From: a virus
Taxonomy: Duplodnaviria; Caudoviricetes
Direction: 5' to 3' (one strand)
DNA: 64,000 nucleotides
Virus record (IMG/VR): IMGVR_UViG_3300028888_000001
The translations under genes and the position numbers were made by a program. Below are positions 11,002-64,000 of this stretch, piece after piece. The notes under the pieces were generated by a model, which was not told where the DNA came from, did no database searches, and was given only the letters and a program-made list of their open reading frames with translations. Within the stretch, counting starts at the first letter, position 1. The number at the start of each line of letters is the position of its first letter.

Positions 11002-11027
11002 ACCCAGAGGGATTGCTCCCTCTGGGT
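11002..11027. terminator. Intrinsic terminator, representative of a related GGGA-loop-TCCC hairpin family
   Basis: ACCCAGAGGGA-TTGC-TCCCTCTGGGT. Related hairpins at ~16020..16043, 24963..24996, 27937..27964, 34566..34587, 53177..53199, 56568..56595, 60799..60828 and 62267..62294, all at gene 3' ends. Confidence 0.8.
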
Positions 11028-11076: not shown

Positions 11077-13605
11077 TTATTGATAGATCGCTGAATAATT
11101 TATTATTTTTTCTTCTACAAATTCAGACGATTCTTCAACATAATCTATATCAAATGTTACATGCTTTGGGCCTCCTATACGGACTAAATGGATATTTTTA
11201 TTAGTTCTATCTATTACAACAATATCAAATGCTTGTTCTGTTATTGTACCCTTGGTGCGATCAAAACCCATAAGATCTGCATTGCCTTGAGAATCTACCC
11301 ATGGAACACAATTATCTTCTGTAATTATAATAAATGGAACGCCGCCTGGAGAAGTCCAAGCCCCATCGCTATGAGTATGCCCACTAAAAGATGCGATTAC
11401 TTTTTTATTTTGATTATTTGAATTGAACGTATCAACAATTCCCCATAATTTAATCGTATTAGAATTTGATGTGCTTATAACTCCAAGCCCATTACCAGTG
11501 GTCAATAATACTGCATGAGAAAATATTATTATTTCCCATCCATCATCAACATCCATTGCAACATTTTCAAGCCAACTCCATTGATCTGCAGTCATTCCTC
11601 CAGGTGTTATTAAATTATCATTTTCATCATAATAGTATGGATTAAACCAATTAAGCATAATATATCTTATTTTTTGTTGATAATTATTAACGTAATAGTA
11701 CTGATATTTAGCATCTCCGTAAACTTTATCTTGTTCATCATTTTGATCCATAGAATACATTATAAATGCTTCATTTATTTCATTACCGCCAGTATAAAAC
11801 CACTCATGATTCCCCATAGCATGATAATATTTACCAGGAAAATATTTTTTAATATCGCTATAACATAAAGTAGCATCTCTAGCTCTATCAACATCATCCC
11901 CAGTATTAAAAAGTTTACGAATATATGTATTATTATAAATATAATTTAATAATTTAGGAGAATTATGTCCTCCTGCTCTATTATAATGCATATCCGATAT
12001 CCAAGCAAAACAATCACCTGTGGAAATATTATTTTGAATAAGCTCGTTAATTCTAGATATTTTATTATCTAAATAATCATTTTCAAAATAATACTCTGGA
12101 ATTTCTACATTGGATTCAGAATTACTTTTTAGTAAATCTGCTTTTTGCATTCTATCATATAAAGTTTTTGGATCTACGTAGTCAGATACATCTTTATCTG
12201 CAATATAACCAGTAAAAGTTTTGCTTTTTTCAATTAATATATTTCTAGGAACTATTTTAGTCCAATCATCATTATTTGCTAAATACGTCATAAATGTTAT
12301 ATATGCCGTATTTTCAAAAGTAGTAAATTGAAATATGCCATTTGTTTGATTATTATATCTAGCAATATCTGTTCCGCTAAAATCATTTTTAACTATAGTT
12401 TTATTACTATCAAACTGTATTATATAAACGCGATAATTCAAATCTTCATCATATTCATAATAAAATACATAATCAGTGCTAGGCTCAACTGGTATAAACT
12501 CTCTAACAGCTGAATTATTTTGAGCATCGGTATTGGCTTTTGATACGAATTTTCCGTTATTAGTACCACCATTTCTATGACCTTGTTCAAATAATAATGA
12601 ATCATCCCATAAATTTTTTGATTTGCTTGCAATTAAGAAATTGCTTAATTTATTATTGATCCCTTCTAATTCATTTCTTTGACAATAATTTAACTTAACT
12701 TCTTTGTATTCGCCCTTGTAAAATTTTAAATCATATTTTTCTAGAATAGGATCTGTAATAATTTTATTATTAATCGTCTGATTTGAGGGAAATGATAAAA
12801 TAATTTTTGCATAAGCACATTCTGAATCCGTTGTTAAAGTAAAATAATTAATTGCATTAACGACAGTGTACTGAGCACGTTTAATAAATGTGTAATCAGA
12901 TTTATACTGAGCAAGCATAATATAGGAAGCATCATTACATTGTATAGTATATAAAGTATTTGGATCGACTGGTATGTACTGTGAACTTCTAACATTACTT
13001 GAACGCGCCTCAAATTCTCCAGTACTAATTATATTGCCGGATTCAAAGTCTGGTATTTCTATATATTCTAATTCCGGATAATATCCAATTTCAGTTTTAG
13101 TGATTATTTCCTTATCGTATTTGGTAACCACATCATCATTTAAGACATACTTATTTAAATTATCATTGTTAATATTTTCATCGACTTCATATAATTTAAC
13201 GTTTGTAAACTGGTATGTTTCACCAGCATACTCTTGTTGAGCTCTTATTGGATAAAAGCCAAACCTAATATAATTAAAATTTTCTATATCGCCAATAATG
13301 TTATTTGATATATATACGATATCGTCTGTATTAAAATAATAGTTATTATGAGTCCCATCAAGATATTGTACCATAATATAGCCTAAAAGATCATCTGTTT
13401 TATATCCATTATAATTATCAAATGTTAAATAATATCCATATTTGTTAATATTATCATATGGTATCTGGTTGGCAAATAAATAAAAACCAAAACCACCATT
13501 TGTTACATTTATTTCTACTGTATCCATTTCTATAATAATTTTACCGTTTGAATTATTGAATACATTATTATAATTTTCTTCTAAATCCACCAAATCGTTA
13601 GAAAG
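11077..13605 (-). CDS. Cassette A: 5'-truncated tail-appendage-like ORF, beta-sandwich modules plus C-terminal calcineurin-like metallophosphoesterase
   Basis: Frame begins at the 12-bp site (LSND-LVDLEE...) with no RBS. Motifs ISDMH, TGDD, MGNHE, FSH, SGHTH; SKNLWD and IEKSKTFTGY-type modules. Confidence 0.75.
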   Translation of the reverse strand, partial: LSNDLVDLEENYNNVFNNSNGKIIIEMDTVEINVTNGGFGFYLFANQIPYDNINKYGYYLTFDNYNGYKTDDLLGYIMVQYLDGTHNNYYFNTDDIVYISNNIIGDIENFNYIRFGFYPIRAQQEYAGETYQFTNVKLYEVDENINNDNLNKYVLNDDVVTKYDKEIITKTEIGYYPELEYIEIPDFESGNIISTGEFEARSSNVRSSQYIPVDPNTLYTIQCNDASYIMLAQYKSDYTFIKRAQYTVVNAINYFTLTTDSECAYAKIILSFPSNQTINNKIITDPILEKYDLKFYKGEYKEVKLNYCQRNELEGINNKLSNFLIASKSKNLWDDSLLFEQGHRNGGTNNGKFVSKANTDAQNNSAVREFIPVEPSTDYVFYYEYDEDLNYRVYIIQFDSNKTIVKNDFSGTDIARYNNQTNGIFQFTTFENTAYITFMTYLANNDDWTKIVPRNILIEKSKTFTGYIADKDVSDYVDPKTLYDRMQKADLLKSNSESNVEIPEYYFENDYLDNKISRINELIQNNISTGDCFAWISDMHYNRAGGHNSPKLLNYIYNNTYIRKLFNTGDDVDRARDATLCYSDIKKYFPGKYYHAMGNHEWFYTGGNEINEAFIMYSMDQNDEQDKVYGDAKYQYYYVNNYQQKIRYIMLNWFNPYYYDENDNLITPGGMTADQWSWLENVAMDVDDGWEIIIFSHAVLLTTGNGLGVISTSNSNTIKLWGIVDTFNSNNQNKKVIASFSGHTHSDGAWTSPGGVPFIIITEDNCVPWVDSQGNADLMGFDRTKGTITEQAFDIVVIDRTNKNIHLVRIGGPKHVTFDIDYVEESSEFVEEKIINYSAIYQ

Positions 13606-13677
13606 ATCAAATGAAAAATACGTTATTAATCGAAAAATAATAGAATTAGGCGTAAGCCTAATTCACTTTCTAACGAT
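13594..13677. repeat. 84-bp element, copy 1: inverted 12-bp ends (ATCGTTAGAAAG...CTTTCTAACGAT), 60-bp spacer with hairpin; putative back-to-back recombination sites
   Basis: Ends at 13594..13605 and 13666..13677. Hairpin GAATTAGGC-GTAA-GCCTAATTC at 13643..13664. Two substitutions relative to copy 2. Confidence 0.92.
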
Positions 13678-15924
13678 ATCGATGATTTAGAAGAAATATT
13701 TTATGTAGACGACACAGATTATATTGATATAACAAATAAATATAAATATGAAAATTATTCTTCAAATATTAGTGAAGGAAAAATAAATTTTTTCAAATCA
13801 AGCACTAGATTATTAAATATAAACGACCCAATTCCATTATATTTATATGATGAAATTAAAATTATCAAAATAGATGAAGACATTGCTTACACTATAATAG
13901 TTGCCGATAAAAATAATACTTTATATGAAACTTTTTCTAGAATTAAAAAATCTGAATATATTTATAATGTAAATGAAGATAATGCTAATAAAATTATGTA
14001 TATTGTAGCTTTATTTGATAATAATGTAGAACCATCAGATTTGAGTAATTATTTAACAATTCAATCTAAAAGTCGTAATTTAATAACTAATTTATTGCAA
14101 AATACTAATAAAACAAATTTATATTATAAATTAACAATAGATGAAAATGACATTTTATATTATAATACAGTAAAAATATTTAATAGAGAAGCTGACACGT
14201 ATTGGGTAAATTATATCATAGATCCAAACGAATGCGATTTTAATAATAAAGGATTTTACATTAGAATATTAGATAGAGCTAATGTGATAACCCCAACCCT
14301 TCAAAATAGACTATGTTATGTTTATTTAAAAGATTCGGTTGCCAATAAGAATGTTAATGTCTATATATATGAGAAAGATTTAAACAAATCGATTTATATT
14401 GAAAAGCCAGAAAACTTAGATAATGTCGATGTAATATCTCTTGTGCTTTATATTCAGCCGACACAAGAAGATAGTACTAATTATCTAAATATTAATTGTT
14501 CTTTCACGGTATTAATTTCAAAAATACCATTTACAAATGAAACAGAGGCATCTGAACAAAATAAAGAAGAGTATGACGTATCTAATTATAATGATATGAT
14601 AGCATATAATTTAATAAATAATAATAAACTTTCTGCAAAAAATATTATCGGCCCTATCAATAAAACATACACGGCAGTTATTGAACAGGAAAATTGGACA
14701 AAAAATTCGTATTACGTTTTTGATGATATAAATGTTGAGCCATTGGATGAAATATATATCACTTGTTCTGAATGCCATGCTATTGGTTTAAGATTGATAT
14801 ACGGGCAATTTTTTGATGCAAATAATCAAAGTATAAAAAAACTATCAATTAATAAATCTAATTTGTATGTAAATGATACAGATGGCTTTAAATATTATGT
14901 ATCGGTGCCTTATGGGGCTGTCAAATTTCAATTAGAAATAAACCTAATATCTAATGCTATCACAGCAGGAGAGACAAATGAAATTGGAGAGGAATTTTAT
15001 ATTAAAAATTTATTTGTAATTGTAAATAAAGATTTACATACATTTCTAAATAATGATTGGAAACAAGCAATAAATTATTTACAAACTAATGCGAATGATA
15101 AATTTTGTTTTGGTATTCAATCGGACACTCATTTTGCTATGCTTAGTGATACTGTTGGCTATAATCTTGCAGAGGCAACTAAGTATTTTGGATTTGATTT
15201 TATAGCTAATCTTGGAGATATAACTAGAGGTTATAGCGGCGGCACAAATGGTATTTATGATACAGATTCGATGGAAGGAATGAAATATTATGCTAAGCAT
15301 ATAATGTATAGATATACAAACGAAGTTAAATGCCCATTCTTAGTCGCTGTTGGAAATCACGAATATAATATTTTATATAAAAATAATCATCCAGAACAAA
15401 ATGAAAGAGTGTTTACTGAAAGTGAATTATTCACATTATTCATTAGGCAGTGTTACAATACAAGCGCAAGAATAGATGGCGTTTATGGTAAACAATATTA
15501 TTATTTAGATTCTATTGCTGTTAGAGTTATAGTGCTAGATACTAATGACACTAATGGTTCATTTAATATATCAAACGAACAAACTCAATGGTTTATAAAT
15601 ACAGCTTTAAATACCAGTAAACCAGTACTTGTATTGTCACATGTTCCATTAATACAAGAAGTTTCAATTAACTATTCTAGCACATATGCCAATATAGTTA
15701 CAGCATTACAAGAATTTAAGTCTAATGGTGGAAGAGTAATAGCTTGTTTAAACGGCCATGTACATAAACAAGATGCTATTAAATTAGACGGTATATGGTA
15801 TATTTCATGTACATTAAATGAAAGCAATGCTGATACTGTTGAATTCTTTATGGTAGATCTAAATAATTTTAGTATTGAAACTATTGGTATTGGGAATGCA
15901 TCTTCTAGATCTTTTGAATATTGA
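13666..15924 (+). CDS. Cassette B: 5'-truncated ORF with C-terminal metallophosphoesterase
   Basis: The frame of ORF 13996..15924 stays open 110 codons upstream to the 12-bp site (LSND-IDDLEEIF...) with no start codon or RBS. Motifs QSDTH, LGD, VGNHE, LSH, NGHVH. Confidence 0.75.
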   Translation, partial: LSNDIDDLEEIFYVDDTDYIDITNKYKYENYSSNISEGKINFFKSSTRLLNINDPIPLYLYDEIKIIKIDEDIAYTIIVADKNNTLYETFSRIKKSEYIYNVNEDNANKIMYIVALFDNNVEPSDLSNYLTIQSKSRNLITNLLQNTNKTNLYYKLTIDENDILYYNTVKIFNREADTYWVNYIIDPNECDFNNKGFYIRILDRANVITPTLQNRLCYVYLKDSVANKNVNVYIYEKDLNKSIYIEKPENLDNVDVISLVLYIQPTQEDSTNYLNINCSFTVLISKIPFTNETEASEQNKEEYDVSNYNDMIAYNLINNNKLSAKNIIGPINKTYTAVIEQENWTKNSYYVFDDINVEPLDEIYITCSECHAIGLRLIYGQFFDANNQSIKKLSINKSNLYVNDTDGFKYYVSVPYGAVKFQLEINLISNAITAGETNEIGEEFYIKNLFVIVNKDLHTFLNNDWKQAINYLQTNANDKFCFGIQSDTHFAMLSDTVGYNLAEATKYFGFDFIANLGDITRGYSGGTNGIYDTDSMEGMKYYAKHIMYRYTNEVKCPFLVAVGNHEYNILYKNNHPEQNERVFTESELFTLFIRQCYNTSARIDGVYGKQYYYLDSIAVRVIVLDTNDTNGSFNISNEQTQWFINTALNTSKPVLVLSHVPLIQEVSINYSSTYANIVTALQEFKSNGGRVIACLNGHVHKQDAIKLDGIWYISCTLNESNADTVEFFMVDLNNFSIETIGIGNASSRSFEY

Positions 15925-16047
15925 TTTTGTACTAGTATGATAACTTGCTATAAATATATAAGAATATCTCTAGATAAAAAATAAAATAATATTTTAATAT
16001 ATAATAATTTTTATTGTACCCTCCAGGGAGTAATCCCTGGAGGTATT

Positions 16048-17517
16048 TTAATTGTCAATTCTTTTTAGGTTTATCATACTACTCATTAAAAATGTGCTAT
16101 CTTCTCTTAAGTACGCTTCACGTTTTCTATATAATAAATAATTACCATTAAATTCTTGATATCTATCGATATTATGAATGGTGATTCTTTTATTGATACT
16201 AAATAAATTAGTATCTAAATCATTCTTATTAAAATAAACTAAGAAGTTCTCACTATTACTTTGAGCTTCGATATTATCTATCATATGCTCATTATCATTA
16301 TTAAGTCTTATAGTATGTGTTTTAGGACTAATATAGTTGGCTTTGTTTTTTAGATTTTTATTCATCTTAGTTTTATATTGTTTACTAAGATCATTTATAG
16401 TCACCACTGTATCAGTATCATTTTCTGGATTTGATATTACGCCAGCAATTTTCGTTTTGCTCTTGTTTATTATAGTATTATCAAATACTTGAGTGAATGC
16501 ATAGTTTACGTCTATCTCATATGTCTTACTAGTATTATTGATAACCATCCCTATCTCATTAGATATAGAATCGTTGATGTCCCGTATTGATATAAGGATA
16601 GATCCGTAAGGATCATCTTTTCTTTCAGTAAGATTTCCAGATGAGGAGACTATATAAGTGCAATCAAAATCTTGATAATATCTATATGGCGTTGAATAAA
16701 ACACCTTTTGATTATTTAAAAATTGCAATGCTTTATTTACAGAATCATGTGGTGGTAAAATAAATTGAGGGAACGTGTCGTTATATGAGAATGGCTCTAT
16801 AATAAGATTATTTATGTGATTTGTAATATACTTTACAATATCATACATGGTAATATTTCTTGCTGCCATTTCACATGTAATCTTATTATTGTTTATATGC
16901 TCGACACATAATAGTCCGAGTGTTAACTCTGTATACGTATCTCCCTTCATGGTTGGGTTAGTATTCACGTTATAATCTACAGGGTCCATTTTATTTACAT
17001 CGTCAGGCAAAAAATAAATAAATTGCTTCCTGAAACAAAGTAAATCTGTTTTATGAGAAATATTATTATTAAATTTATACAGTGATAGAATGATTAAATT
17101 ATTATTTTGATTTTTAATCATATCATCAACAAGAGATCTATCCAATCTCATGTTACAATATATTACTGGCATTGTATTTATATCATAATTATGGTCAACA
17201 ATCATAGAGCGTAAACACTCATTTTTAATCAGTGTAGTAGTTTTTCTATTAACGTCATAATATTGTAATTGAATCTTATATCTATAAGCAACAATATTTC
17301 GTTTATCTCTTGACGTATTACGACTATAATATGATGTAATGTTAGAATAAGTAGAGTAGCCAGCTCCAGTTACAGATTTTGGAGCTGTATATGTAGCAGT
17401 GCCACCACCATTTTCAGTTGAAAATCCAACTCTAGATGACGTACTTTTTACTGATGCTGATCCATATGATGCTATAGCTCTAGCTTTATCTTGTAATTGT
17501 TCAAAACTCACAGCCAT
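16048..17517 (-). CDS. Virion structural protein, possibly baseplate hub-like
   Basis: 489 aa, RBS GCAGGTG, own GACA-N6-TA motif (17545..17556) and terminator. The hub assignment is tentative. Confidence 0.4.
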   Translation of the reverse strand: MAVSFEQLQDKARAIASYGSASVKSTSSRVGFSTENGGGTATYTAPKSVTGAGYSTYSNITSYYSRNTSRDKRNIVAYRYKIQLQYYDVNRKTTTLIKNECLRSMIVDHNYDINTMPVIYCNMRLDRSLVDDMIKNQNNNLIILSLYKFNNNISHKTDLLCFRKQFIYFLPDDVNKMDPVDYNVNTNPTMKGDTYTELTLGLLCVEHINNNKITCEMAARNITMYDIVKYITNHINNLIIEPFSYNDTFPQFILPPHDSVNKALQFLNNQKVFYSTPYRYYQDFDCTYIVSSSGNLTERKDDPYGSILISIRDINDSISNEIGMVINNTSKTYEIDVNYAFTQVFDNTIINKSKTKIAGVISNPENDTDTVVTINDLSKQYKTKMNKNLKNKANYISPKTHTIRLNNDNEHMIDNIEAQSNSENFLVYFNKNDLDTNLFSINKRITIHNIDRYQEFNGNYLLYRKREAYLREDSTFLMSSMINLKRIDN

Positions 17518-17575
17518 TTAATTAACACCTGCCTTTATGGTTATTAATTAAATGTCGCGGGCATAAAAATAATAT

Positions 17576-20458
17576 TTAAATATTTTTAAGAAATGCAGTA
17601 TATACATCGGCGCATTGCCAATAACCAGATTCTACAGGATGAACACCGCCGTTTGCAATTGGACTGAAATATGTAGTTGTATTTCTAGCATTTACTTGAA
17701 TCTCTTCCATACCCATGTTATATACAGTATCAAGGCAAAGATTTAATGGAATTAGATAAATATTTTCATCTTCCCTATTTTTATAATTCTCTATCTGATT
17801 AGCAACCCATAAAATATTATTTCTTTTATATCTATTTCTCGTTTGACCATTTTTATATGCTTTACCATAAGCATCTTGGGAATAATTTGGTGGGATAGTA
17901 AGACAGATACCGATTTTAATATTTTCATCAAAATCTTTAATCTGAGAAATTACTTCATCGCATAACCCATTTAGATATTCAATTTCAATATTTAATGAAA
18001 TATCATCAGCATATCCAAATGTATCATTAATACCTAAATTTATAAAAAACCAGTCTGGATGATCAAAATTAGTTTCAGAAAAATAATTTGCTATATCAAA
18101 TGTTTCAGTTGTTTCATTATAAAATGGATTATCCACATCACCTCTACCATCTGTGTACGTTTCTCCAGCAGATGTAAAATAAGTTCTATATTTCCAGCCA
18201 GATCTACCCTCATGGTTATTTGGATTGCTTCCTCTAGTACCAATTGTTATGATATTCATTGGATCGGTTGATAAATTTTGATTTAATTTAGTAACACATA
18301 TGCCATTATTTGTAGTACTATCTCCAAGTATTATTAATTTAATTAATTCATTAGCTTTAGCTGTAGCCGATGCGACATAAATAGTTGCAGTTTTTGTTAC
18401 AGTTATATCATTTTTAGTAACTTTTATTGTTATAGGATACTCCCCAACATTTTCTTCAATTGGAGTAACTCTAAAACATCTTTGCAAATGTGTGCCTATA
18501 GAACAAGTTACATCAAAATCGTATTGGGTATCATAACCATCTACGAGATTATCAAAATATATATTAGTTTCATATCCAACCAAAGCATAAATTTTTGGCG
18601 GTAAATTTACTGGAAATTTTGATTTATTAATATTATCGCTTAGAATATATTGTGGATCTATTGCTTTATAATATGGCTCGTAATCAGTTGCTTGATCGCC
18701 TTCTTCAAGCATAGAATTTTTTACGTCCTTATAACCTGCTGAGAATCTATAATAAGCAGCATTATTAGGGGTTGTAAATGTTACCGCTTCTTCTGAATTC
18801 CCACCACTTAAATAATTTTTATTAATATCAAAAATGCAATATCTATAATTTATATAATATTGATCTATATTGCTATATGTATACGTGGTATTTGGTTTTA
18901 TAGATATATAATCGCTTGTTGTATGTGAGGCATTTTCAGATATATTACCATTTATTTGACTTATATAATATCCTCTAGATAAACTATCATCATCTACTTT
19001 TAATAAATTCTTAGAAGTTACAAAAAATGTAGTATCTTCTGGAGTTATTAAATCTTGATTCGAATTGTCTAATTTTATATATTTATTGTCTATATACATA
19101 TAATAATTTTCATACGATGTAGCTTCAGTGCCTTCTTCTAATTGTAATAAATTTGTACTATTGGCAGCTTTTGATTGAGATAGGGCTATATAATATGCTG
19201 ATTCTGGAGATGTTATAGTAAAATGTTTAGTAGAATTAGATGCATTTACTGCAGAATTAGGAATATACTTATTATCGCTATCATAAAATGCATATTGAAT
19301 ATTACTTGTTAAATTAGATGAAATTGTATACTCTGTTGATGGCTTAATTTTTATTTTATCAGTAGCAATATAATTATCATTGTTATTTATTGAACCACTT
19401 ATCCAATTTACATAAAATCCATCTAATAATGTATTAATATCTATAAGGTTTTTACCTTGAATGAAAAACGTGGTATCTTGAGGCTCAATTAATTTGTCTA
19501 ATTCGGTATTTTCCTGATTGTTTTGAATTGCGGGTATATAAATTGGATCTATTGTATAACCATAATCTGCATACTTGGTTCTTTCTTCACCCTCTTCCAA
19601 TTGTATATAATAGTCAGATATATCATTATTATTAAAACTTAAACGTATATACTCGTCCAACGGGCCAGTTGTTATTTGAAGGCCTTTATAAGTATCGCTA
19701 TTGGGGGCATAATATATTGATACATTATTTTGACCTCCGGTATTAATAAATTGCTTATTAAATAAAGAATAAAAGCAAGTACAAGTTTTAATAGAACTTA
19801 AGCAATATGTAGTGTTTGGCTTTATTTTTATATAATCAAATAAAATATAAAAATTATTGTCACCGATTCTGCCAACAGAAACAATATATTTACCAATTTC
19901 TTTATTTGGATCGTCTTTATTAAATAAATTCTTAGAAGTTACAAAAAATGTAGTACTTTTTGGAGTTATTAATGGAATACTATTACAATCTATAAAATTT
20001 GGGATAGAATAATCCAATGATTGTAATTCAATTTTTGTACCTTTATATAAGAAAATTAATAATTGGTTATTGGGTATTGATGAGTAATTTGCAGATATGT
20101 GAATGTATGCAGCATTTTCCGGCGTTGTATATTCTGCAAAAGCAGCATTCATATTATAATCTATGATATTGTTTTCAGCATCATAAACAATGTATCTTGA
20201 TAAATCTACATGTAATGAGTATGTTGTTTCTGGTTCCACATCATAAATACAATAAATAAAACCCGGGTATGGTTTTAAAATCTTTGTTTTATTTACATTA
20301 TTATAGTAAAAGTATATCGCATCCTTTTCAATATATTTTGGTAATATAATATTATCTTTATTATTTATTTCCAATAAACCAATCCATCCAGTGTTTTTAT
20401 ACATATAAGTATTTAAATTGTTAATTCTTTCAATGTTATCAGTATTATCGTTAGAAAG
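17576..20458 (-). CDS. Cassette C: repeated carbohydrate-binding-like modules plus C-terminal SGNH/GDSL hydrolase
   Basis: Begins at the 12-bp site (LSND-NTDNIE...). The track's ATG at 20479 lies in the spacer, has no RBS and is ATA in copy 1. Motifs ILGDS, EGRSG, NLGIND, GVHP; three 'TTFF..KNL...LEEG...Y' modules. Confidence 0.75.
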   Translation of the reverse strand, partial: LSNDNTDNIERINNLNTYMYKNTGWIGLLEINNKDNIILPKYIEKDAIYFYYNNVNKTKILKPYPGFIYCIYDVEPETTYSLHVDLSRYIVYDAENNIIDYNMNAAFAEYTTPENAAYIHISANYSSIPNNQLLIFLYKGTKIELQSLDYSIPNFIDCNSIPLITPKSTTFFVTSKNLFNKDDPNKEIGKYIVSVGRIGDNNFYILFDYIKIKPNTTYCLSSIKTCTCFYSLFNKQFINTGGQNNVSIYYAPNSDTYKGLQITTGPLDEYIRLSFNNNDISDYYIQLEEGEERTKYADYGYTIDPIYIPAIQNNQENTELDKLIEPQDTTFFIQGKNLIDINTLLDGFYVNWISGSINNNDNYIATDKIKIKPSTEYTISSNLTSNIQYAFYDSDNKYIPNSAVNASNSTKHFTITSPESAYYIALSQSKAANSTNLLQLEEGTEATSYENYYMYIDNKYIKLDNSNQDLITPEDTTFFVTSKNLLKVDDDSLSRGYYISQINGNISENASHTTSDYISIKPNTTYTYSNIDQYYINYRYCIFDINKNYLSGGNSEEAVTFTTPNNAAYYRFSAGYKDVKNSMLEEGDQATDYEPYYKAIDPQYILSDNINKSKFPVNLPPKIYALVGYETNIYFDNLVDGYDTQYDFDVTCSIGTHLQRCFRVTPIEENVGEYPITIKVTKNDITVTKTATIYVASATAKANELIKLIILGDSTTNNGICVTKLNQNLSTDPMNIITIGTRGSNPNNHEGRSGWKYRTYFTSAGETYTDGRGDVDNPFYNETTETFDIANYFSETNFDHPDWFFINLGINDTFGYADDISLNIEIEYLNGLCDEVISQIKDFDENIKIGICLTIPPNYSQDAYGKAYKNGQTRNRYKRNNILWVANQIENYKNREDENIYLIPLNLCLDTVYNMGMEEIQVNARNTTTYFSPIANGGVHPVESGYWQCADVYTAFLKNI

Positions 20459-20530
20459 ATCAAATGAAAAATACGTCATTAATCAAAAAATAATAGAATT
20501 AGGCGTAAGCCTAATTCACTTTCTAACGAT
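20447..20530. repeat. 84-bp element, copy 2 (same orientation as copy 1)
   Basis: Inverted 12-mers at 20447..20458 and 20519..20530, hairpin 20496..20517; 82/84 identical to 13594..13677. Confidence 0.92.
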
Positions 20531-22765
20531 TTTGAAGATTTAGAGAATAATGAATTAGAAAATCTATATTTATTATATAAACAAACATATGATTCGCATG
20601 AAATAAATATTAGCATGATTGATAGTTTAGAGCAAGGCAATATTCAAAATGGCGATAATAGCAGTACCAATCAATTAGCTAGATTAAGGTCTGGAGAATA
20701 TTATTCATGTAAAGATTATGATTTTTTAATAACTCCGTATCATTATCTTAGATTATATTTAGTATTTTATGATGAAAATAAAATATGGGATAGTACTGCT
20801 AATATAGAAGATACCGATATTTTATACATTAATAAATCTAAATCATATTTTAGATGCGTTATAATTGATCGCTCCGATTTAAATTCTTGGTCAACACCAA
20901 TATCTGTAGACGATGTAAAATATAAAGTATTCATGGGTAAATACAATTTTAATAATTTTTATAAGAATTATAATAATATTAAAGGTATTGAAAAGGATAA
21001 TAATATTTTATTTTTTATTAATGATCTGGAAGCAGGTAATATTCAAGAAGGTGTTCCTAATAGTAATAATTATGCTGCAAGAGTTAGAACAAAAAATTTT
21101 TATTTAACTAAAGACTATGATAAAATAATTTCTAATTATAATTTTATAGTTTTTATTAATTATTATGATTCTGATAATAATGATACGTATCAAACGACTT
21201 CTAGTAAGGAATTATCCGAAGCCAATAATGAAATAATTATAAATAAAAATTACTCATACTTTAAAATTGTATTTATTGATTTTACAGAAGCTAATTATTT
21301 AACTCCGATAACTCCATACCAAGTGAGATCATTAGCCTTTTTAGCAAAGACGACTAATGAAACCGAAGCGTCATTATCCCAAATTAAAAAAGAAATAGAT
21401 AATAAAATTACAATTTTAGATAATAAAAACTATTTACTTCATAATAAAGGTTATAATGTTACTGCTATATATGATTGGGAGCAGGGTAATATTCAAGACG
21501 GCATTCCTAACAATAGTTCATATGAAGCAAGAGTTAGAACAAAAAATTTTTATTTATGTAAAGATTATAAAAAATTAGTTACGATTAAAACAACTTTACG
21601 TTTATATTTAACATTTTATAATTCAGATTATATTTATTTAAATAGTATCGAAGGTAATGGAGAATTAGCCATAGATCAATCAGCTACATATTTTAAATCT
21701 GTTATAATTGATCGCTCCGATTTAAATTCTTGGTCAACACCAATAACTCCAGATGATGTAATAACTAATATATTTTTAGTAGAATCTATCGAAGAATTAA
21801 ATGAAAATGGAGATGCCGTTCCAAATTATTTTAAAACGCAATTAGAGACAGTTTCTAATGATGCATTATATCATAGTGCATCCGTTGGCAAAAATGGGGT
21901 TTCATTTATTTTTTGTACCGATTTACATTGGTCAGTAAATCAAAAACATAGTGCAGCTTTAATGAAAGAAGTAATTAATAATACATTAATTAATACTATA
22001 ATCTTGGGTGGGGATTATATAAATCAATTTAATGGCGGCAAAGAATATGCTATAACAAATATGAGAGATTGCATTTCTAAATATTGGAAATTATCGGATA
22101 GAGTATTTCCCATATTTGGTAATCATGATAGAAATTCTAATGGTACTCCTGTAGAAGCCTATATGACTGAAGATGAAGCTTATATAGAATTAAATAGATG
22201 GATTAATCCAATAGCTAAATACGCTGATGATGATTATTTTTCTTATTATTTCGATGATGAAAAATCAAATACGCGATTTATAATTTTTAAATCAGCAACT
22301 CAATCTATTTCATCTGATATTACTGATTCTACTATAAATTGGGTTGAGTCTAAAGTATTAGAATTGCCAAAAAATTGGCATGTGATACTAGCATCTCATT
22401 GGATAACTACTGGACAAACTTCTTGGGATCATCCAATGGATAATGACGGGACGTACACTGGTAGGTTGACTAATAATGCAAAAAAATTATTTGATAAAAT
22501 GGAAGTTATCAATAATGATTCAACAAAATGCACAATTGAATGTGGCATATTTGGTCATATTCATTGTGATGTAGTTATGAATGATTTATATAGTTTCCCA
22601 ATTATATTTACAGACACAGATGGAAATTTGGCACTTGGAATTTATCCATTTGAAGAGGGCACAGTAAATGAACAATGTTTTGATATAATAACTATAGATT
22701 ATAATAATAAAACTGTTTATTGTGATCGTATTGGACGCGGTGTAAGTAGAGAAGTAAATTATTAA
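20519..22765 (+). CDS. Cassette D: three 'EQGNIQ' modules plus C-terminal metallophosphoesterase
   Basis: The frame of ORF 20615..22765 is open 32 codons upstream to the 12-bp site (LSND-FEDLEN...). Motifs CTDLH, GGD, FGNHD, ASH, FGHIH. Confidence 0.75.
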   Translation, partial: LSNDFEDLENNELENLYLLYKQTYDSHEINISMIDSLEQGNIQNGDNSSTNQLARLRSGEYYSCKDYDFLITPYHYLRLYLVFYDENKIWDSTANIEDTDILYINKSKSYFRCVIIDRSDLNSWSTPISVDDVKYKVFMGKYNFNNFYKNYNNIKGIEKDNNILFFINDLEAGNIQEGVPNSNNYAARVRTKNFYLTKDYDKIISNYNFIVFINYYDSDNNDTYQTTSSKELSEANNEIIINKNYSYFKIVFIDFTEANYLTPITPYQVRSLAFLAKTTNETEASLSQIKKEIDNKITILDNKNYLLHNKGYNVTAIYDWEQGNIQDGIPNNSSYEARVRTKNFYLCKDYKKLVTIKTTLRLYLTFYNSDYIYLNSIEGNGELAIDQSATYFKSVIIDRSDLNSWSTPITPDDVITNIFLVESIEELNENGDAVPNYFKTQLETVSNDALYHSASVGKNGVSFIFCTDLHWSVNQKHSAALMKEVINNTLINTIILGGDYINQFNGGKEYAITNMRDCISKYWKLSDRVFPIFGNHDRNSNGTPVEAYMTEDEAYIELNRWINPIAKYADDDYFSYYFDDEKSNTRFIIFKSATQSISSDITDSTINWVESKVLELPKNWHVILASHWITTGQTSWDHPMDNDGTYTGRLTNNAKKLFDKMEVINNDSTKCTIECGIFGHIHCDVVMNDLYSFPIIFTDTDGNLALGIYPFEEGTVNEQCFDIITIDYNNKTVYCDRIGRGVSREVNY

Positions 22766-22887: not shown

Positions 22888-24963
22888 ATGGATAATAATA
22901 TTAATACTCTGTATTTTATACAAGAAAAAGCTATATTAGAAGCGGTTTTTGCTGATGTTTTTAAATGGCTTAAGAAGTCTTCTAATAATACCACTGTAGT
23001 TCCAAAATCTACTCCAAAGAAATCGGCCAAAGCAAAACTTTCTCCATGTACATATATTGACCAAGATTCCAAAGAAATAGTTATTCAAGGAATTAATTTC
23101 CGTAAATTTATTTCTCGTCTAAAGGAAACTTATAAATATAGAGGAATATTAAATCTTTTTGATCGTAAATACTCTACATGGGAAATGAATTTATGGTATA
23201 AAGAAAAAATAACTAAAGATAGAATGAAAGTTATAGAGCTTAGAGTTCCACTATTTTTCTCATTAGAGCTTTATAAGATATTTCAAGATTTGTACGAATT
23301 TTATAGATATTCAATGTATCAGTCTATAGCAAATGATATTTATAATAATACGTGGATATCTAATTTTGAGAAAGTGAATCCTGTATATACAGACATATCT
23401 AAATTATCTAATATCACATATGAGTTTAAACCATATCAAGCAGAGTTTATTAGACAATATTCTGCTTTAAAACAGCTCTATGATTTAGATGGCTATATTC
23501 TTTCATTTGAGCAAGGTTTAGGAAAAACATTAACCGCTATAGGACTAGTGGAATGCTTAAACAAAGATCAGATTATTATCATTTGTCCTAACTCGCTGAA
23601 AGAAAACTGGGCTAATGAAATCAGTATGTATTATAAAAAATATAATACTCATAAAGGTCTTTTAGAAAAAGAAATTTTTATAAATAATAATAAAAAATTC
23701 AATGCTAAAAATCCTAAATATATTATAGCTAATCAAGAAAATATTCCTTCAATATTTTCTATAATAAAGCAAAATAAAAACACTATGATTATTGTAGACG
23801 AATGTCATAACTTCCGTAATATAGATGCTGAACGTGTAAAGAATCTTATTAAGCTTAAAGAGCTTATAGATTGTAAAGATAATCTATTAATGTCTGGAAC
23901 GCCCATTAAAGCAACGCCAAATGAATTAGCTCCAGCATTAAGAATGATAGATCCATATTTTACCGAGCCAGTATGTATAAGATATATAAAATCATTCAAT
24001 ACATATTCAGAAGAAATATCTCGTGTTGTTAGGGAGAGATTTTCAAGAATAATTTATAAACAAACTAAAGAACAAGTGCTACAACTACCGGAGAAAAATA
24101 TTTATCAAGCATTTTTACCATTAAAGCATGAAGAACCATATTATGTGTCTACAATAAGAAAACAAATAGCACAGGATTTTCATAAAGAGTATGAGATTCT
24201 TTATAAAGATTTTTCTATTTATAAAAATAGATTTGAAACGCTTGTAAAGAAATATTCTTCAGCCCCAAGTATAGATACTAAAGTATATCTAAATTATCTT
24301 GCTGGGAATATAAATTTTGGAGAATACAGAGAAGAATTATATAAAGATTTTCTCAAACAATATGTATATCCAAATATACAAGATATATCAGAAATTAAAG
24401 AGCTAAAAGAAATGCAAACTAAATATATCTATATGTATAACTCTGCTATGGGCAAAGCAATAGGCAAAAATTTACCTCCAGCAAGAGCAAATTGCTATAT
24501 AGATTTATTTGACGAGAATAAACAATTCTTCATAGAAAAAATAGAATCTAATAATAAGAAAACCGTAATATTTACTCCATTCTTGGATGTTGCAAATCAT
24601 ACTGCTGAAGAATTATCTAAATCTGGAATTAGTAATGTTCTTATTACCGGTGAAACTAAAGATAGATTTTCTCTTATCACAGAGTTTAAAGAATCAGATA
24701 TAATAGATGTATTAATTGCTACAACACAAACTTTAAACACTGGCGTTACTCTAGTTGAAGCAGATCAAATGTTCTTCTTAGGTGTTCCATATAGAGATGC
24801 TGATTTTGAACAAGCTTGCGATAGAATACATCGTATAGGGCAGACCACAGATGTAAATATTTATATCATTCTTCTTAAATCTAAACAAGAAAATGTTTCT
24901 ACTAGAATAGAAAAAATAATGTCATGGTCGGCAGACGCGGTGAATGATTTCATGGATATTTAA
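22888..24963 (+). CDS. SNF2-family (SF2) helicase/ATPase
   Basis: EQGLGKT, IVDECH, SGTP, QACDRIHRIGQ; late promoter 22851..22862. Confidence 0.9.
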   Translation: MDNNINTLYFIQEKAILEAVFADVFKWLKKSSNNTTVVPKSTPKKSAKAKLSPCTYIDQDSKEIVIQGINFRKFISRLKETYKYRGILNLFDRKYSTWEMNLWYKEKITKDRMKVIELRVPLFFSLELYKIFQDLYEFYRYSMYQSIANDIYNNTWISNFEKVNPVYTDISKLSNITYEFKPYQAEFIRQYSALKQLYDLDGYILSFEQGLGKTLTAIGLVECLNKDQIIIICPNSLKENWANEISMYYKKYNTHKGLLEKEIFINNNKKFNAKNPKYIIANQENIPSIFSIIKQNKNTMIIVDECHNFRNIDAERVKNLIKLKELIDCKDNLLMSGTPIKATPNELAPALRMIDPYFTEPVCIRYIKSFNTYSEEISRVVRERFSRIIYKQTKEQVLQLPEKNIYQAFLPLKHEEPYYVSTIRKQIAQDFHKEYEILYKDFSIYKNRFETLVKKYSSAPSIDTKVYLNYLAGNINFGEYREELYKDFLKQYVYPNIQDISEIKELKEMQTKYIYMYNSAMGKAIGKNLPPARANCYIDLFDENKQFFIEKIESNNKKTVIFTPFLDVANHTAEELSKSGISNVLITGETKDRFSLITEFKESDIIDVLIATTQTLNTGVTLVEADQMFFLGVPYRDADFEQACDRIHRIGQTTDVNIYIILLKSKQENVSTRIEKIMSWSADAVNDFMDI

Positions 24964-25097
24964 ATATTCTAGAGGGATTACTCCCTCTAGAATATTTTTT
25001 GGTAAACCTAAATTTAGTTATATAATATATATTTGTATAGATAGAACAATCTATACAAAACTTATAAACTTTATCATTCATAAAAGGAGAAATAACA

Positions 25098-26108
25098 ATG
25101 GCAATGGAATATAACATTTTTACAAAAATTGAAGGTATTAAATTCGTTGGTAGCGCCATCTGTATTGATGTAATAGACAAAGATGATACAGCTAAAAATA
25201 ATGAGTATGATTGCATTATTGCTGTACATGATGGAATTTTTCACACAGATGATGTTCTATGCGTAGCACTGGTAATGATGAAGCGGATGGAAGAATCTGT
25301 TGAGGAGCAATTTATTCACACTTTGGTAATTCGTACAAGAGATAAAAACGAATTTGACAGGTGCGATTATGTTCTTGATGTTGGTGGAGTTGATTCTGTA
25401 ACTTCAGATTGTGTTAGGTTTGACCATCATCAGCCAGATAGCAAAAGCTATGAAAATGGAATCAAAATGGCCGCGTGCGGTAAGTTAGCCAGATACTTCT
25501 ATGCAGAAAGTGATCCTGGTTGGCTTGAGTATCTTAAGGTCAATGTGCTGTATGGAATTGAAGCTCAGGATAATGGACAAGATGGATTCCCAACGTATAT
25601 CAATCCGTTTGGATTTATCAATGTTATGAATCCAAATTGGAATGAACCAAGCGAATACGAGAGACGCTTTGTAGATGCTGTATCAATTGTACTTGAGATG
25701 CTCGGTAGATATCGGGCAAGATATGATTCTGTCAAGGAAGCCGAGGAATATGTCAATACTGCAATAGAACACAGTGAAAGAGGAATAATTGTTCTTGAGC
25801 AGTTTGCACCGTGGGTAAACTATGTGTGCAAATATAATGCAACCAAAAACAATGATGATGAAAAAATTAAATTCGTTGTCTTTAAGTCTAGCACTGGCAG
25901 TTGGAATGTGCAAACTGTAAGAATTCAGCCAGATAAGTTTGATTCTATCAAGTTGTTACCTGAAGAGTGGGCTGGAAAGAACGGCGTTGAACTTGATGAA
26001 TCTTCTGGAATTGAAGGCGGTGTATTCTGCCATATTGGTAGATTCATCTGTGGTTGGAAGACTAAAGAAGCTGCAATCGAGGCTGCAAAGAAAGCTAATA
26101 GTTTGTAA
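25098..26108 (+). CDS. MYG1-family (UPF0160) metal-dependent hydrolase/exonuclease
   Basis: HDGIFHTDDV, DVGG...FDHHQ, DNG, LPEEWAG, FCH..RFI motifs; RBS AAGGAG. Confidence 0.88.
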   Translation: MAMEYNIFTKIEGIKFVGSAICIDVIDKDDTAKNNEYDCIIAVHDGIFHTDDVLCVALVMMKRMEESVEEQFIHTLVIRTRDKNEFDRCDYVLDVGGVDSVTSDCVRFDHHQPDSKSYENGIKMAACGKLARYFYAESDPGWLEYLKVNVLYGIEAQDNGQDGFPTYINPFGFINVMNPNWNEPSEYERRFVDAVSIVLEMLGRYRARYDSVKEAEEYVNTAIEHSERGIIVLEQFAPWVNYVCKYNATKNNDDEKIKFVVFKSSTGSWNVQTVRIQPDKFDSIKLLPEEWAGKNGVELDESSGIEGGVFCHIGRFICGWKTKEAAIEAAKKANSL

Positions 26109-26127
26109 AGATTTACAGTAACAATTA

Positions 26128-26135
26128 TATATTAT
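26128..26135 (+). promoter_or_regulatory. Putative early promoter motif TATATTAT
   Basis: TATAT(T/A)AT also precedes non-structural genes at 4856..4863(-), 25019..25026(+) and 33959..33966(+). It resembles the phiKZ early motif TATATTAC, but this is weak evidence in AT-rich DNA. Confidence 0.4.
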
Positions 26136-26253
26136 AGAAGTGTGATGAGGAAATAAGTTAATTTCTCATCAGTATCTATAAGTTAATCTAGAATACAAGG
26201 GCCATTACTGGCCCTTGCATATTCTAGGATGATTTTTTCATAAGGAGGTAACT

Positions 26254-27921: not shown

Positions 27922-27978
27922 GTGAAAAACTCTATCATCCTCAGAGGGAAATCCCTCTGAGGATATTGTTTTTATTAT

Positions 27979-62327: not shown

Positions 62328-64000
62328 TTAAAAGTTAAAATTATATTTATTGTATAAATCAGCGTGTGCATCTGTAACTCTATATTTATCAATCGTTAAA
62401 CCAGTTATACCCATATCGACTAATTCTCTAATTCTATTCATAATAGTGCCATATGAAATTGTGGTCAAATCAACATACCAGCATTCTATCTCGTAACCAT
62501 TGTTTATAGCCAGCTGTGCTTGCTCGACCGTTAAAGTTCTACCATCAGGATTAAAGAAAAAATTTCCACGCACGGATGTGTTATCTTTGAATTCTTCCCA
62601 ATATTCGCAAAGAGCTTCTGTTGGGGTTGAAAGGGTTCCAAATCTATAATTATTATATATAGATTTTAATGTTTCTGCTCTATCTATACTAATATTAATC
62701 CAGGATGTCTTATCTCTCATTCCATATTTTTTCAATATACTATCCATCCAAATTACATCTTCATCAGTCCATGTATTTTTTCTATCTATATAAATTTCCA
62801 TTCCTAATTGCTTAGATAATAAAACCCATTCTTCAAATGATAACATTTGGGTTCCTCGGAATTGTTCGCCATAATAGAGCCCAAAATCGAATCGTTTTAA
62901 ATCTTTATATAATATATCTGTTACAGAATAATCTGCACCATTCATTGGAGTTAAATTATTTATATCTTGCTCTTGAGATTCAATATAATTGTTGTCAATA
63001 AATTCATAAATCTTTTCTTCTTGTTCATCATAATAATATATATTATTAGTACTATCTATATAAACTTTATATCCTTCAATTGAAACTATATTACCATTTA
63101 CATTTATTTTATTTAAATTTATATCATGCCAGCAAATAAAAACCCCATCTGATGAATTGAAAACATCGTTTTCATTTATTTCGAACCCTAATTTTCTAGC
63201 CGCAATATATGCCGGGGCTACGCATTGAGGAGCATCGATATCATCGCCCCTATGAGCAATATGTCTTATAGTTTTAGATGGCAAAACATATTCTATATTT
63301 TTTACATTTATACCGAATTCTAATAATTTTAGCGTAAAGCAATTTTCAACTCCAAATGATCTATATGATAATAGAAAATATTTAGCATTTTCTACTGTCG
63401 CAGCAGTAATTAATAAATCATATTTCGCAATATTAAATGAATATGATTTACGTTTTATAAATTCTTTATTTTCATCATATAATGCTATAGCAAACCACAT
63501 AACATGTACTTCTGAGTATTCTATAGACATATAATATTTATAATTTTCGTTAAACTTTATTAAACTAGTATAATATTCTAAATTAGTTAAATTTTGAGCA
63601 GAAAAAATTCCATCAGCTCTAATAAATCCAGGATACGTTTCATATTCTAATTTATATCCTGAATCCGACACTTCGTTTAAATATGATTGAATCTTTTGTT
63701 CTAAATATTCTTCATTAATATTATTAAATTTTTTAGTAATATAAATTTTATATGGCTCGTTTATAGTTCTAAAAGATATTATACAATAATATGCTAAATT
63801 ATATTGCTCTAAGTCTATATTAAATGTATAGTAAATATTATATTCATCATTATTTTCATTCCGATCTAAATATGTGCTATAATTGTAAATTATGTTATAA
63901 TTTTTATCTAAAAATATATAATGAATCCAAGACTTTGTTGGATTTGTAATATTATATTCACCATCATCAGAATTGTGATTGTTTCCAAAAAATTCAACTT
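62328..64000 (-). CDS. Cassette-like ORF with C-terminal GDPD domain, 5' end beyond window
   Basis: IAHRG...ENDV..SSDG..ICWHD...GITGLTID. The frame stays open from 63671 to the window edge. Confidence 0.75.
   Translation of the reverse strand, partial: VEFFGNNHNSDDGEYNITNPTKSWIHYIFLDKNYNIIYNYSTYLDRNENNDEYNIYYTFNIDLEQYNLAYYCIISFRTINEPYKIYITKKFNNINEEYLEQKIQSYLNEVSDSGYKLEYETYPGFIRADGIFSAQNLTNLEYYTSLIKFNENYKYYMSIEYSEVHVMWFAIALYDENKEFIKRKSYSFNIAKYDLLITAATVENAKYFLLSYRSFGVENCFTLKLLEFGINVKNIEYVLPSKTIRHIAHRGDDIDAPQCVAPAYIAARKLGFEINENDVFNSSDGVFICWHDINLNKINVNGNIVSIEGYKVYIDSTNNIYYYDEQEEKIYEFIDNNYIESQEQDINNLTPMNGADYSVTDILYKDLKRFDFGLYYGEQFRGTQMLSFEEWVLLSKQLGMEIYIDRKNTWTDEDVIWMDSILKKYGMRDKTSWINISIDRAETLKSIYNNYRFGTLSTPTEALCEYWEEFKDNTSVRGNFFFNPDGRTLTVEQAQLAINNGYEIECWYVDLTTISYGTIMNRIRELVDMGITGLTIDKYRVTDAHADLYNKYNFNF

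Follow-up and report, generated by a model that had tools for sequence, protein, structure and literature searches.

We estimate the probability at about 85% that four long open reading frames, called here cassettes A–D, have neither promoter nor start and lie silent as 3′ cassettes in a multiple-inversion shufflon serving one tail-fibre gene of a sheep-gut jumbo phage. Such a shufflon would diversify the distal part of a single tail-fibre protein, with which the phage binds or degrades its receptor. The analysed stretch (the window, 64,000 nt) belongs to a circular contig of 313,204 bp, which carries the expression site as well. What was observed directly comprises the cores and their frames, the lack of Shine-Dalgarno (SD) sequences and starts (an ATG before cassette C excepted), the expression site, the recombinase gene and the exchange at the core in related phages.

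Cassette A (11077..13605, minus strand, 842 codons from the core) is an open frame without SD. Its fibre-like N-terminal part matches phrog_7158 and a tail phrog. Cassettes B (13666..15924, plus strand, 752 codons from the core) and D (20519..22765, plus strand, 748 codons from the core) encode metallophosphoesterases. Cassette C (17576..20458, minus strand, 960 codons from the core) contains repeated fibre modules and an SGNH/GDSL esterase. The earlier note had counted three metallophosphoesterases and one SGNH enzyme. For B and D this was confirmed by Pfam Metallophos. The C-terminal domain of A is predicted to be metallophosphoesterase-like from its alignment with the Metallophos domain of D (E 5e-15, metal motifs lined up), and the support for C is a Pfam Lipase_GDSL match with an E-value of 3e-5, above the cut-off. 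The homologues of D in other phages have ordinary fibre N-termini. The frames of 748–960 codons are intact in DNA of 25–27% GC, which indicates selection; as they are open under table 11, recoded stop codons are unnecessary. Searches for homologues of D, of C and of a relative's deaminase revealed no paralogue on the 313-kb contig.

None of the four cassettes has a ribosome-binding site, as had been claimed, while a clear GGAG/GGAGG-type motif precedes about 20 of 30 neighbouring genes. The claim that the cassettes lack starts holds for A, B and D and calls for a minor correction in the case of C, which has an in-frame ATG 7 codons upstream (20479). In B there is no ATG, GTG or TTG for 110 codons, and the first start is codon 111; the chance probability of such a start-free open frame is about 5e-5 in DNA of 26% GC. 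The first start codon of D is codon 33, and that of A is a TTG immediately 3′ of the shared 12-mer. It could be supposed that the cassettes are independent genes, whose translation begins at an internal or non-AUG codon or arises through frameshifting out of a small spacer ORF, and that the 12-mer is a conserved N-terminal motif. The ATG before C, a similar in-frame ATG before a cassette elsewhere in the genome (C6), and a small spacer ORF (ATG 13611), which stops just short of B in a different frame, speak for this. However, the ATG of C lies inside the spacer, has no SD and is situated immediately downstream of a terminator-like hairpin. Its position is not conserved in three spacer copies (ATGACG, ATAACG, ATAATG) and is missing in relatives. 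Moreover, a protein motif alone leaves unexplained why all sites have AAC and GAT, the two sides of a spacer have only the core in common, and the same core occurs inside complete fibre genes. We consider independent translation very improbable. Two specific variants, a +1 shift out of the small spacer ORF and an ATT start, were tried and remained unsupported, given that the spacer sides share the core only.

The 12-mer CTTTCTAACGAT occurs in exactly four copies in the whole window: 13594-13605 (A, minus strand), 13666-13677 (B, plus strand), 20447-20458 (C, minus strand) and 20519-20530 (D, plus strand). The sites and the open translations agree that it opens all four ORFs in the same frame (L-S-N-D), as the earlier note had stated. 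It also proved right that x-x-D-L-E follows in three of them (A, B and D); C has N-T-D-N-I-E instead. When up to one mismatch was allowed, the window contained five matches against 0.54 expected, and none of 100 shuffles reached five. We verified eight exact cores in this genome, present in both orientations: four in the window, two in locus L031 and two further ones in L028. This number is a lower bound (at least eight), as the whole 313-kb record was not scanned. Megablast against the phage collection and pattern scans of IMG/VR gave no matches. At every aligned site (7 of this genome and 37 of relatives), the core is kept at the DNA level, including synonymous positions. It should be noted that most of these sites had been retrieved by the core search itself.

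As the earlier note described, A/B and C/D form head-to-head pairs around two near-identical 84-bp elements (core-spacer-core), which differ at two positions. In the 60-bp spacer between the inverted cores of A and B (13606..13665), the cassette frames are closed by stops, and a 9-bp hairpin (13643-13664, loop GTAA/TTAC) precedes a T-run on the minus strand. The 60-bp spacer between C and D (20459..20518) has a hairpin at 20496-20517, terminator-like on the minus strand. A third spacer copy elsewhere in the genome lies in the opposite genome orientation, and 81 of 84 columns are invariant over the copies. The hairpin scan also found a bidirectional terminator-like hairpin after cassette A (11002..11027) and another after cassette B (16020..16043, plus strand). 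Between B and C there is a passenger gene of 489 aa without a family match (16048..17517, minus strand), which has its own purine-rich RBS-like motif AAAGGCAGGTG. We also examined whether the spacer is an invertible start-codon cassette that supplies a leader (MTYFSFD) to A or B, and to C or D. This was rejected because the ATG is neither conserved in the three spacers nor present in relatives, there is no SD, and a real expression site exists.

The 84-bp element could also be a MITE-like or attC-like insertion between paralogues, small and either mobile or foldable, with the cassettes moving as integron-like units. It has 12-bp terminal inverted repeats and near-identical copies, and its single strand folds strongly (z -6.8). 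The TTCTAAC/GTTAGAA of the core presumably resembles integron R boxes, which we treat as a lead only. The best NCBIfam model of the recombinase described below is of the XerA/integron-integrase type. Yet its scores with the integron-integrase models (64 and 35 bits) are far under the cut-offs (265 and 435), and no attI/Pc-type layout was seen. Some complete genes contain a lone core with no spacer, and relatives pair an unrelated spacer of equal length with the same cores. The criteria for an integron are not met: the layout consists of divergent cassette pairs with in-frame fusion. Of the explanations considered, we give this one the least credit.

The shufflon requires a complete gene that contains the core, and the earlier note expected one outside the cassettes. 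It turned out that a complete, SD-driven tail-fibre gene with the 12-mer in the L-S-N-D frame lies about 18 kb beyond the window end (L027/L031). The expression site, the only one known in this genome, consists of AAGGAGG, ATG, 391 constant codons and CTTTCTAACGAT in the same frame, followed by a 725-aa metallophosphoesterase cassette; the junction reads ...TGDQLTE|LSND.... The protein library contains a single N-terminus–cassette fusion from this phage, a point against the shufflon. The anticipated tyrosine or serine recombinase was likewise found outside the window, between cassettes, as an intact Xer-like tyrosine recombinase of 341 aa (L028, 8304-9329; Pfam Phage_integrase, PF00589, 7e-26) with R-K-H-R-H-Y present. 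Its gene is located 8 kb beyond the expression-site fibre gene and is flanked by more cassettes. That this enzyme acts on the cores is inferred, since the two are linked by position only. A 386-aa ORF with a weak DUF3504 match in another locus (L020) is unrelated to the recombinase. Further start-less cassettes headed by the same core, also foreseen, were found in L028 and L031. In addition, an ORF with a GDPD domain at the window end (62328..64000, minus strand) is open for its C-terminal 556 codons, continues beyond the window and is probably a fifth cassette.

The window cores are 61.7–68.5 kb from the expression core. The intervening DNA contains structural genes, the gene for RNA polymerase beta and an ORF of 5145 aa, which bears out the described interleaving with core jumbo-phage genes. 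The cassettes are spread over at least 86 kb of the 313-kb genome, so the compact cluster expected of a shufflon is not present here. The circular MEGAHIT contig is cut precisely where the expression-site core begins, at its first base; the chance of this is about 3e-6, and the cut fits a pruned minor junction at this place. Only Logan contigs, not reads, were placed on the window, and no read-level inversion junction was obtained. These contigs, from the source run SRR9006805, break inside the repeated spacers, and the listed joints with sides of 20–26 nt resemble low-complexity noise. In one 151-nt goat-gut Logan contig, the match ends at 13605 and is followed by 11 unlike letters, which are unreadable. 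This contig material therefore speaks neither for inversion nor against it.

The exchange of cassettes is seen in related phages. The metagenome search gave 23 matches to inverted 11-mers. We kept 17 JGI rumen loci and excluded L006, L008, L009, L015, L022 and L024, which have inverted 11-mers without long ORFs and were judged unrelated. The layout of the 17 loci is as in this phage, and L021 includes an expression site too. In relatives, the spacer sequence is unrelated to that of this phage, while the cores and the spacer length are the same. Given cassette families are found on both sides of the spacer, and the base preceding the core tracks the spacer side, not the cassette. Relatives with different cassettes on the same constant N-terminus and a homology switch at the core do exist: in the rumen relatives, the core joins one N-terminus (91–98% identical) to cassettes of three types. 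As far as the core, the identity of L029 and L021 is about 91%, and their DNA homology switches exactly there. Past the core, L029 continues as a homologue (83% identical) of the silent cassette of L021. In a third lineage, the exact 12-mer stands behind a different N-terminus.

These exchanges could also be read as the scar of occasional fibre-end swaps, for which the core is merely a conserved linker. The recombinase would then have another role (dimer resolution or integration), and the window cassettes would be rarely or never expressed. Its Xer-like type is consistent with this, as is the lack of read-level junctions, only contigs having been available. Some relatives also differ by a cassette replacement with the 3′ flank conserved, and such a replacement requires homologous recombination, not inversion. 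These differences count against the shufflon as well. On the other hand, homologous exchange needs more than 11–12 bp. A scar does not account for start-less frames that stay open for 750–960 codons, for core DNA conserved at synonymous positions in all aligned (mostly core-retrieved) sites, for a recombinase gene positioned between cassettes, or for a contig cut precisely at the expression core. We regard such a scar as improbable, though less so than the two other alternatives.

According to the shufflon model, the recombinase would swap the sequence downstream of two inverted cores, with crossover within the 11-bp TTTCTAACGAT. Cassettes A and C have the opposite orientation to the expression core, and a single inversion of 62–69 kb would join one or the other to the constant part, leaving the former cassette parked at the spacer. 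B and D would first require a local inversion of the B–C type, with which the passenger gene would travel. Idle cassettes would be parked head-to-head on the 60-bp spacers, where the stop codons and the terminator-like hairpin would keep them untranslated. Ongoing inversion in this phage itself is inferred, without read-level evidence, and so are the long-range events and the actual use of window cassettes lying 62–69 kb away. For this phage the evidence is indirect only: the flipped spacer copy and the contig cut at the core. The distance of 62–69 kb, which far exceeds the segment sizes of characterised shufflons, counts against the model. A further point against it is that the cores of B and D are direct repeats of the expression core, an arrangement that would cause deletion unless the enzyme is limited to inverted sites.

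It is possible that programmed inversions of at least 62–69 kb, about one fifth of the 313-kb genome, bring any of a dozen-odd enzyme-tipped ends to the single expression site and thereby switch the host range. They would flip the RNA-polymerase, structural and giant-protein genes, and the hairpin spacers would be purpose-built silencing docks. We propose this extension tentatively and hold it at somewhat less than even odds. Jumbo phages are usually assumed to widen their host range by means of many simultaneous fibres. This giant phage, however, seems to maintain a single fibre gene together with a stock of large enzymatic tips. A 2026 review of jumbo-phage biology does not mention inversion or shufflons. 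The cassettes encode metallophosphoesterases, SGNH esterases, GDPD and a beta-helix. Plausible targets of the tips are wall polymers with phosphodiester links or acetyl groups in a Gram-positive rumen host. Should the distant cassettes be in use, this would be programmed site-specific inversion across tens of kilobases of viral DNA, with core genes re-oriented at each switch. The 11-bp core is a simple search key, by which 17 related loci and two additional lineages have been recovered, and it supplies receptor-binding modules of natural origin whose fusion point is defined.

Several known systems resemble this one. In the shufflon of the R64/IncI1 plasmids (Rci, sfx sites, pilV), a tyrosine recombinase makes multiple inversions at asymmetric short sites and swaps the C-terminus of an adhesin. 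There, however, the adhesin belongs to a pilus encoded on a plasmid, and four segments lie within about 2 kb without spacers or passenger core genes. Gin, Cin and Min are serine invertases that work with an enhancer and Fis, whereas the sole recombinase found here is of the tyrosine type (the whole genome was not scanned for a serine invertase). In Mu, P1 and p15B, the respective systems Gin, Cin and the multi-segment Min invert DNA and thereby change the distal part of a tail fibre (PMC6109161). The Rin shufflon of Bifidobacterium prophages has a phage-encoded tyrosine recombinase and an 11-bp asymmetric crossover site rix, TTCCCTAACCC, located in frame between a constant 5′ part of the receptor-binding protein and alternative 3′ cassettes; its variants are distinguished by inversions at rix sites (Mavrich et al. 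2018, PMC6109161). The phage studied here shares with Rin the type of recombinase, the short in-frame site and the constant 5′ part with alternative 3′ cassettes. The sites themselves differ in sequence (TTCCCTAACCC versus (C)TTTCTAACGAT). Rin is compact, with about five small cassettes beside rin in a temperate siphophage, in contrast to at least eight cores over at least 86 kb in a 313-kb phage. Unlike those of Rin, the cassettes here are 600–1000 codons long and each has an enzyme domain; their parking places are 60-bp hairpin spacers, dispersed amid RNA polymerase and structural genes. Thus, the principle is known from the Rin shufflon, and what is new is the big enzymatic cassettes, the presence of at least eight cores, the 60-bp hairpin spacers and the location of cassettes among core genes 62–69 kb from the expression site.

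Once reverse-complemented, the window matches a section of the ENA contig ERZ27257205:k141_6857040 exactly (window position x corresponds to 82264 - x in the record). The two ends of this contig share an identical stretch of exactly 141 bp (12354-12494 of one end, L031, and 1-141 of the other, L028), the same value as the assembler k; therefore, the genome has a circular map of 313,204 bp. It is recognisable as a jumbo phage from its RNAP beta, virion proteins and 5145-aa ORF. The sequencing runs containing this DNA are from sheep gut, and goat-gut signals are weak. The SNF2 helicase and RNAP beta genes beside the cassette pair (22888-32328) are in convergent orientation and separated by two genes, and those of the relative L013 (670-7210) are tandem and adjacent, which could be due to a past large inversion or indel. 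The dCMP deaminase of this genome (133 aa, L031 4061-4462) is intein-free; the relative L002/L007 (5499-7235) encodes a 578-aa dCMP deaminase with an HNH-domain intein, and the relative L023 an NrdD with a LAGLIDADG-domain intein.

The 12-bp core CTTTCTAACGAT occurs in exactly four copies in the window, at 13594-13605 (-), 13666-13677 (+), 20447-20458 (-) and 20519-20530 (+). When up to one mismatch was allowed, five matches were found versus 0.54 expected. Counted from the core in the L-S-N-D frame, cassettes A, B, C and D remain open for 842, 752, 960 and 748 codons, respectively. This confirms the observation of the earlier note that an identical 12-mer heads four long ORFs in the same frame. 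The DNA in this region is 25-29% GC, and the chance probability of 110 open codons in such DNA is about 5e-5. As the note had claimed, the first 110 codons of cassette B contain no ATG, GTG or TTG. The earliest start in D is codon 33, and in A it is a TTG immediately after the core. The claim that all four ORFs are start-less has to be amended slightly for C, which has an in-frame ATG in the spacer, 7 codons 5' of the core. This ATG comes after a terminator-like hairpin, lacks a Shine-Dalgarno sequence and is not conserved in position among the three spacer copies of the genome (ATGACG, ATAACG, ATAATG). The reported absence of ribosome-binding sites was borne out: a Shine-Dalgarno-type motif was found upstream of none of the four cassettes, versus a clear GGAG/GGAGG-type motif in about 20 of 30 other window genes. 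The enzyme domains agree with the description in the note, three metallophosphoesterases and one SGNH: a Metallophos domain was found in B and D, the C-terminus of A can be aligned to the Metallophos domain of D, and C has a GDSL/SGNH match.

Each head-to-head pair surrounds an 84-bp element, in which 60 bp of spacer are flanked by perfect 12-bp inverted repeats. The two window elements were said to be near-identical and indeed differ at two positions only. A third spacer copy lies beyond the window in the opposite genome orientation, and 81 of 84 columns are invariant among the copies. The spacer contains stop codons in the cassette frames, and its hairpin with a T-run is terminator-like toward the cassette on the non-hairpin side. 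The complete element is predicted to fold into a single long hairpin (dG -26.8 kcal/mol, z -6.8). The core includes TTCTAAC/GTTAGAA (for example, at 13594-13605), which resembles CTAAC in the rix site of Rin and which we take to be similar to the inverse-core and core boxes of integron attC sites (RYYYAAC / GTTRRRY).

Using a fibre N-terminus from a relative as a query, we found the partner gene that the earlier note had predicted. It encodes P0174 on the Logan contig L027 from the same sample, which is identical to the two ENA contig ends over 6,405 and 4,423 bp, without a single mismatch. AAGGAGG stands seven bases 5' of the ATG; 391 constant codons ending in ...AADAKVTGDQLTE are followed by the exact 12-mer in the L-S-N-D frame and a 725-aa metallophosphoesterase cassette. 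The core of this expression site is on the + strand in window orientation at about 82,123, 18 kb beyond the window end, 61.7 kb from the C core and 68.5 kb from the A core. A single 5145-codon ORF (34649-50086, +) lies between the window cassettes and the expression site. It turned out that the cut in the circular MEGAHIT contig falls precisely on base 1 of the expression-site core; the probability of a cut on that exact base by chance is about 3e-6. Since a repeat of 12 bp is too short to cause a branch in an assembly graph with k=141, the simplest cause is a pruned minor junction. This is a hint of ongoing exchange that rests on our understanding of the assembler, with no read-level proof.

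Downstream of the expression site follow, in order, an ELLD-domain gene, a silent beta-helix cassette (-), the third spacer copy, a silent GDSL cassette (+), an intact 341-aa Xer-like tyrosine recombinase (PF00589, 7e-26), an HTH gene and a further cassette. The catalytic residues R, K, H-x-x-R, H and Y are present in the recombinase. Upstream, about 13 kb beyond the window end, there is a GDSL cassette of 741 codons with a solitary core at its head (L031 7204-7240). TAA and then GTTACTGAA stand before this core; eight of these bases, TTACTGAA, match the end of the constant fibre part. Together with the first C of the core, nine bases of this end, TTACTGAAC, are kept behind the stop codon. Possibly, the locus is an expression site that has decayed or been truncated. 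In total, eight cores were verified; further silent cassettes and a recombinase, both anticipated in the note, were located, the recombinase being of the tyrosine type. A GDPD-domain ORF (62328-64000, -), at least 556 codons long, continues past the window end. Beside it, a 475-aa ORF (60834-62261, -) has GDPD/PI-PLC-X and tail-fibre phrog matches, no SD and a GC-rich hairpin immediately 5' of its ATG; it may be another fibre-type enzyme, with no core linked.

To look for relatives, JGI metagenomes were scanned for two inverted 11-mers 50-75 bp apart. Of 23 loci, 17 from two rumen-type data sets have the same layout, in which start-less ORFs, the longest of about 1,130 codons, lie head-to-head around a 60-bp spacer. 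Their spacer is unrelated in sequence to that of this phage, and a GTAA-loop hairpin is present in both. Three other JGI loci (L006, L008 and L022; one of 162 kb) have a different repeated element, with the same inverted 11-mers about 60-75 bp apart and no long ORFs behind. The same cassette families, opening with FQYNQESL.., VSNLSEYNVDQD.. or (I/V)LGASYKASEVW..., stand on either spacer side, depending on the contig. The base 5' of the core is set by position (T on one spacer side, G or A on the other, C in expression sites), and the bases 3' of GAT go with the cassette; therefore, the exchange point is within TTTCTAACGAT. The relative L021 has a complete fibre gene: AAGGAGG, ATG, 497 constant residues (initiator Met included), the core and 510 codons. 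Proteins P0172 and P0173 (locus L029) are 98% and 91% identical to its N-terminus and continue, after ...GDAITE|LSND, into cassette types unlike that of L021. At the DNA level, the identity of about 91% between L029 and L021 ends two bases beyond the core, and L029 then runs on into a sequence homologous (83% identical) to the silent cassette that L021 itself carries. Relatives with different cassettes on one constant part do exist. In a third lineage (L030), a different 416-aa N-terminus leads into the exact 12-mer and a metallophosphoesterase cassette. Homologues of D in unrelated phages have ordinary fibre N-termini where LSND would be.

We have established the site, the frames, the silence of the parked cassettes, one expression site, the presence of a recombinase gene and, among relatives, exchange at the core. 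How the cassettes move is inferred: the recombinase would act on a pair of inverted cores and flip the DNA that lies between them. With respect to the expression core, A and C have the opposite orientation; for either of them, one inversion would be enough to create a fusion with the constant part, and the cassette now in use would be parked on a spacer, on its non-hairpin side. B and D are direct and would require a local inversion first, for example B-C, which would also flip a 489-aa passenger gene. The reading of the note, a silent library of fibre C-termini joined by site-specific recombination to a constant N-terminal gene elsewhere, is supported by the partner gene, the additional cassettes, the recombinase and the exchange among relatives; read evidence that the system is active, and used over long range, in this phage is still lacking.

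Among the papers searched, none couples shufflons with jumbo phages, and inversion and shufflons are both absent from a 2026 jumbo-phage review. Of the known systems, the Rin shufflon comes closest. It has a tyrosine recombinase, an in-frame rix site of 11 bp, and about five cassettes for one constant RBP 5' part (PMC6109161); the likeness lies in the recombinase type, the short in-frame site and the constant 5' part with alternative cassettes. Gin, Cin and Min use serine invertases, in contrast to the tyrosine recombinase of this phage. The R64 Rci/sfx system works like the Rin shufflon. The dispersed system described here does not meet the compactness criterion for a shufflon and differs from the known ones in scale, dispersal, spacer docks and setting.
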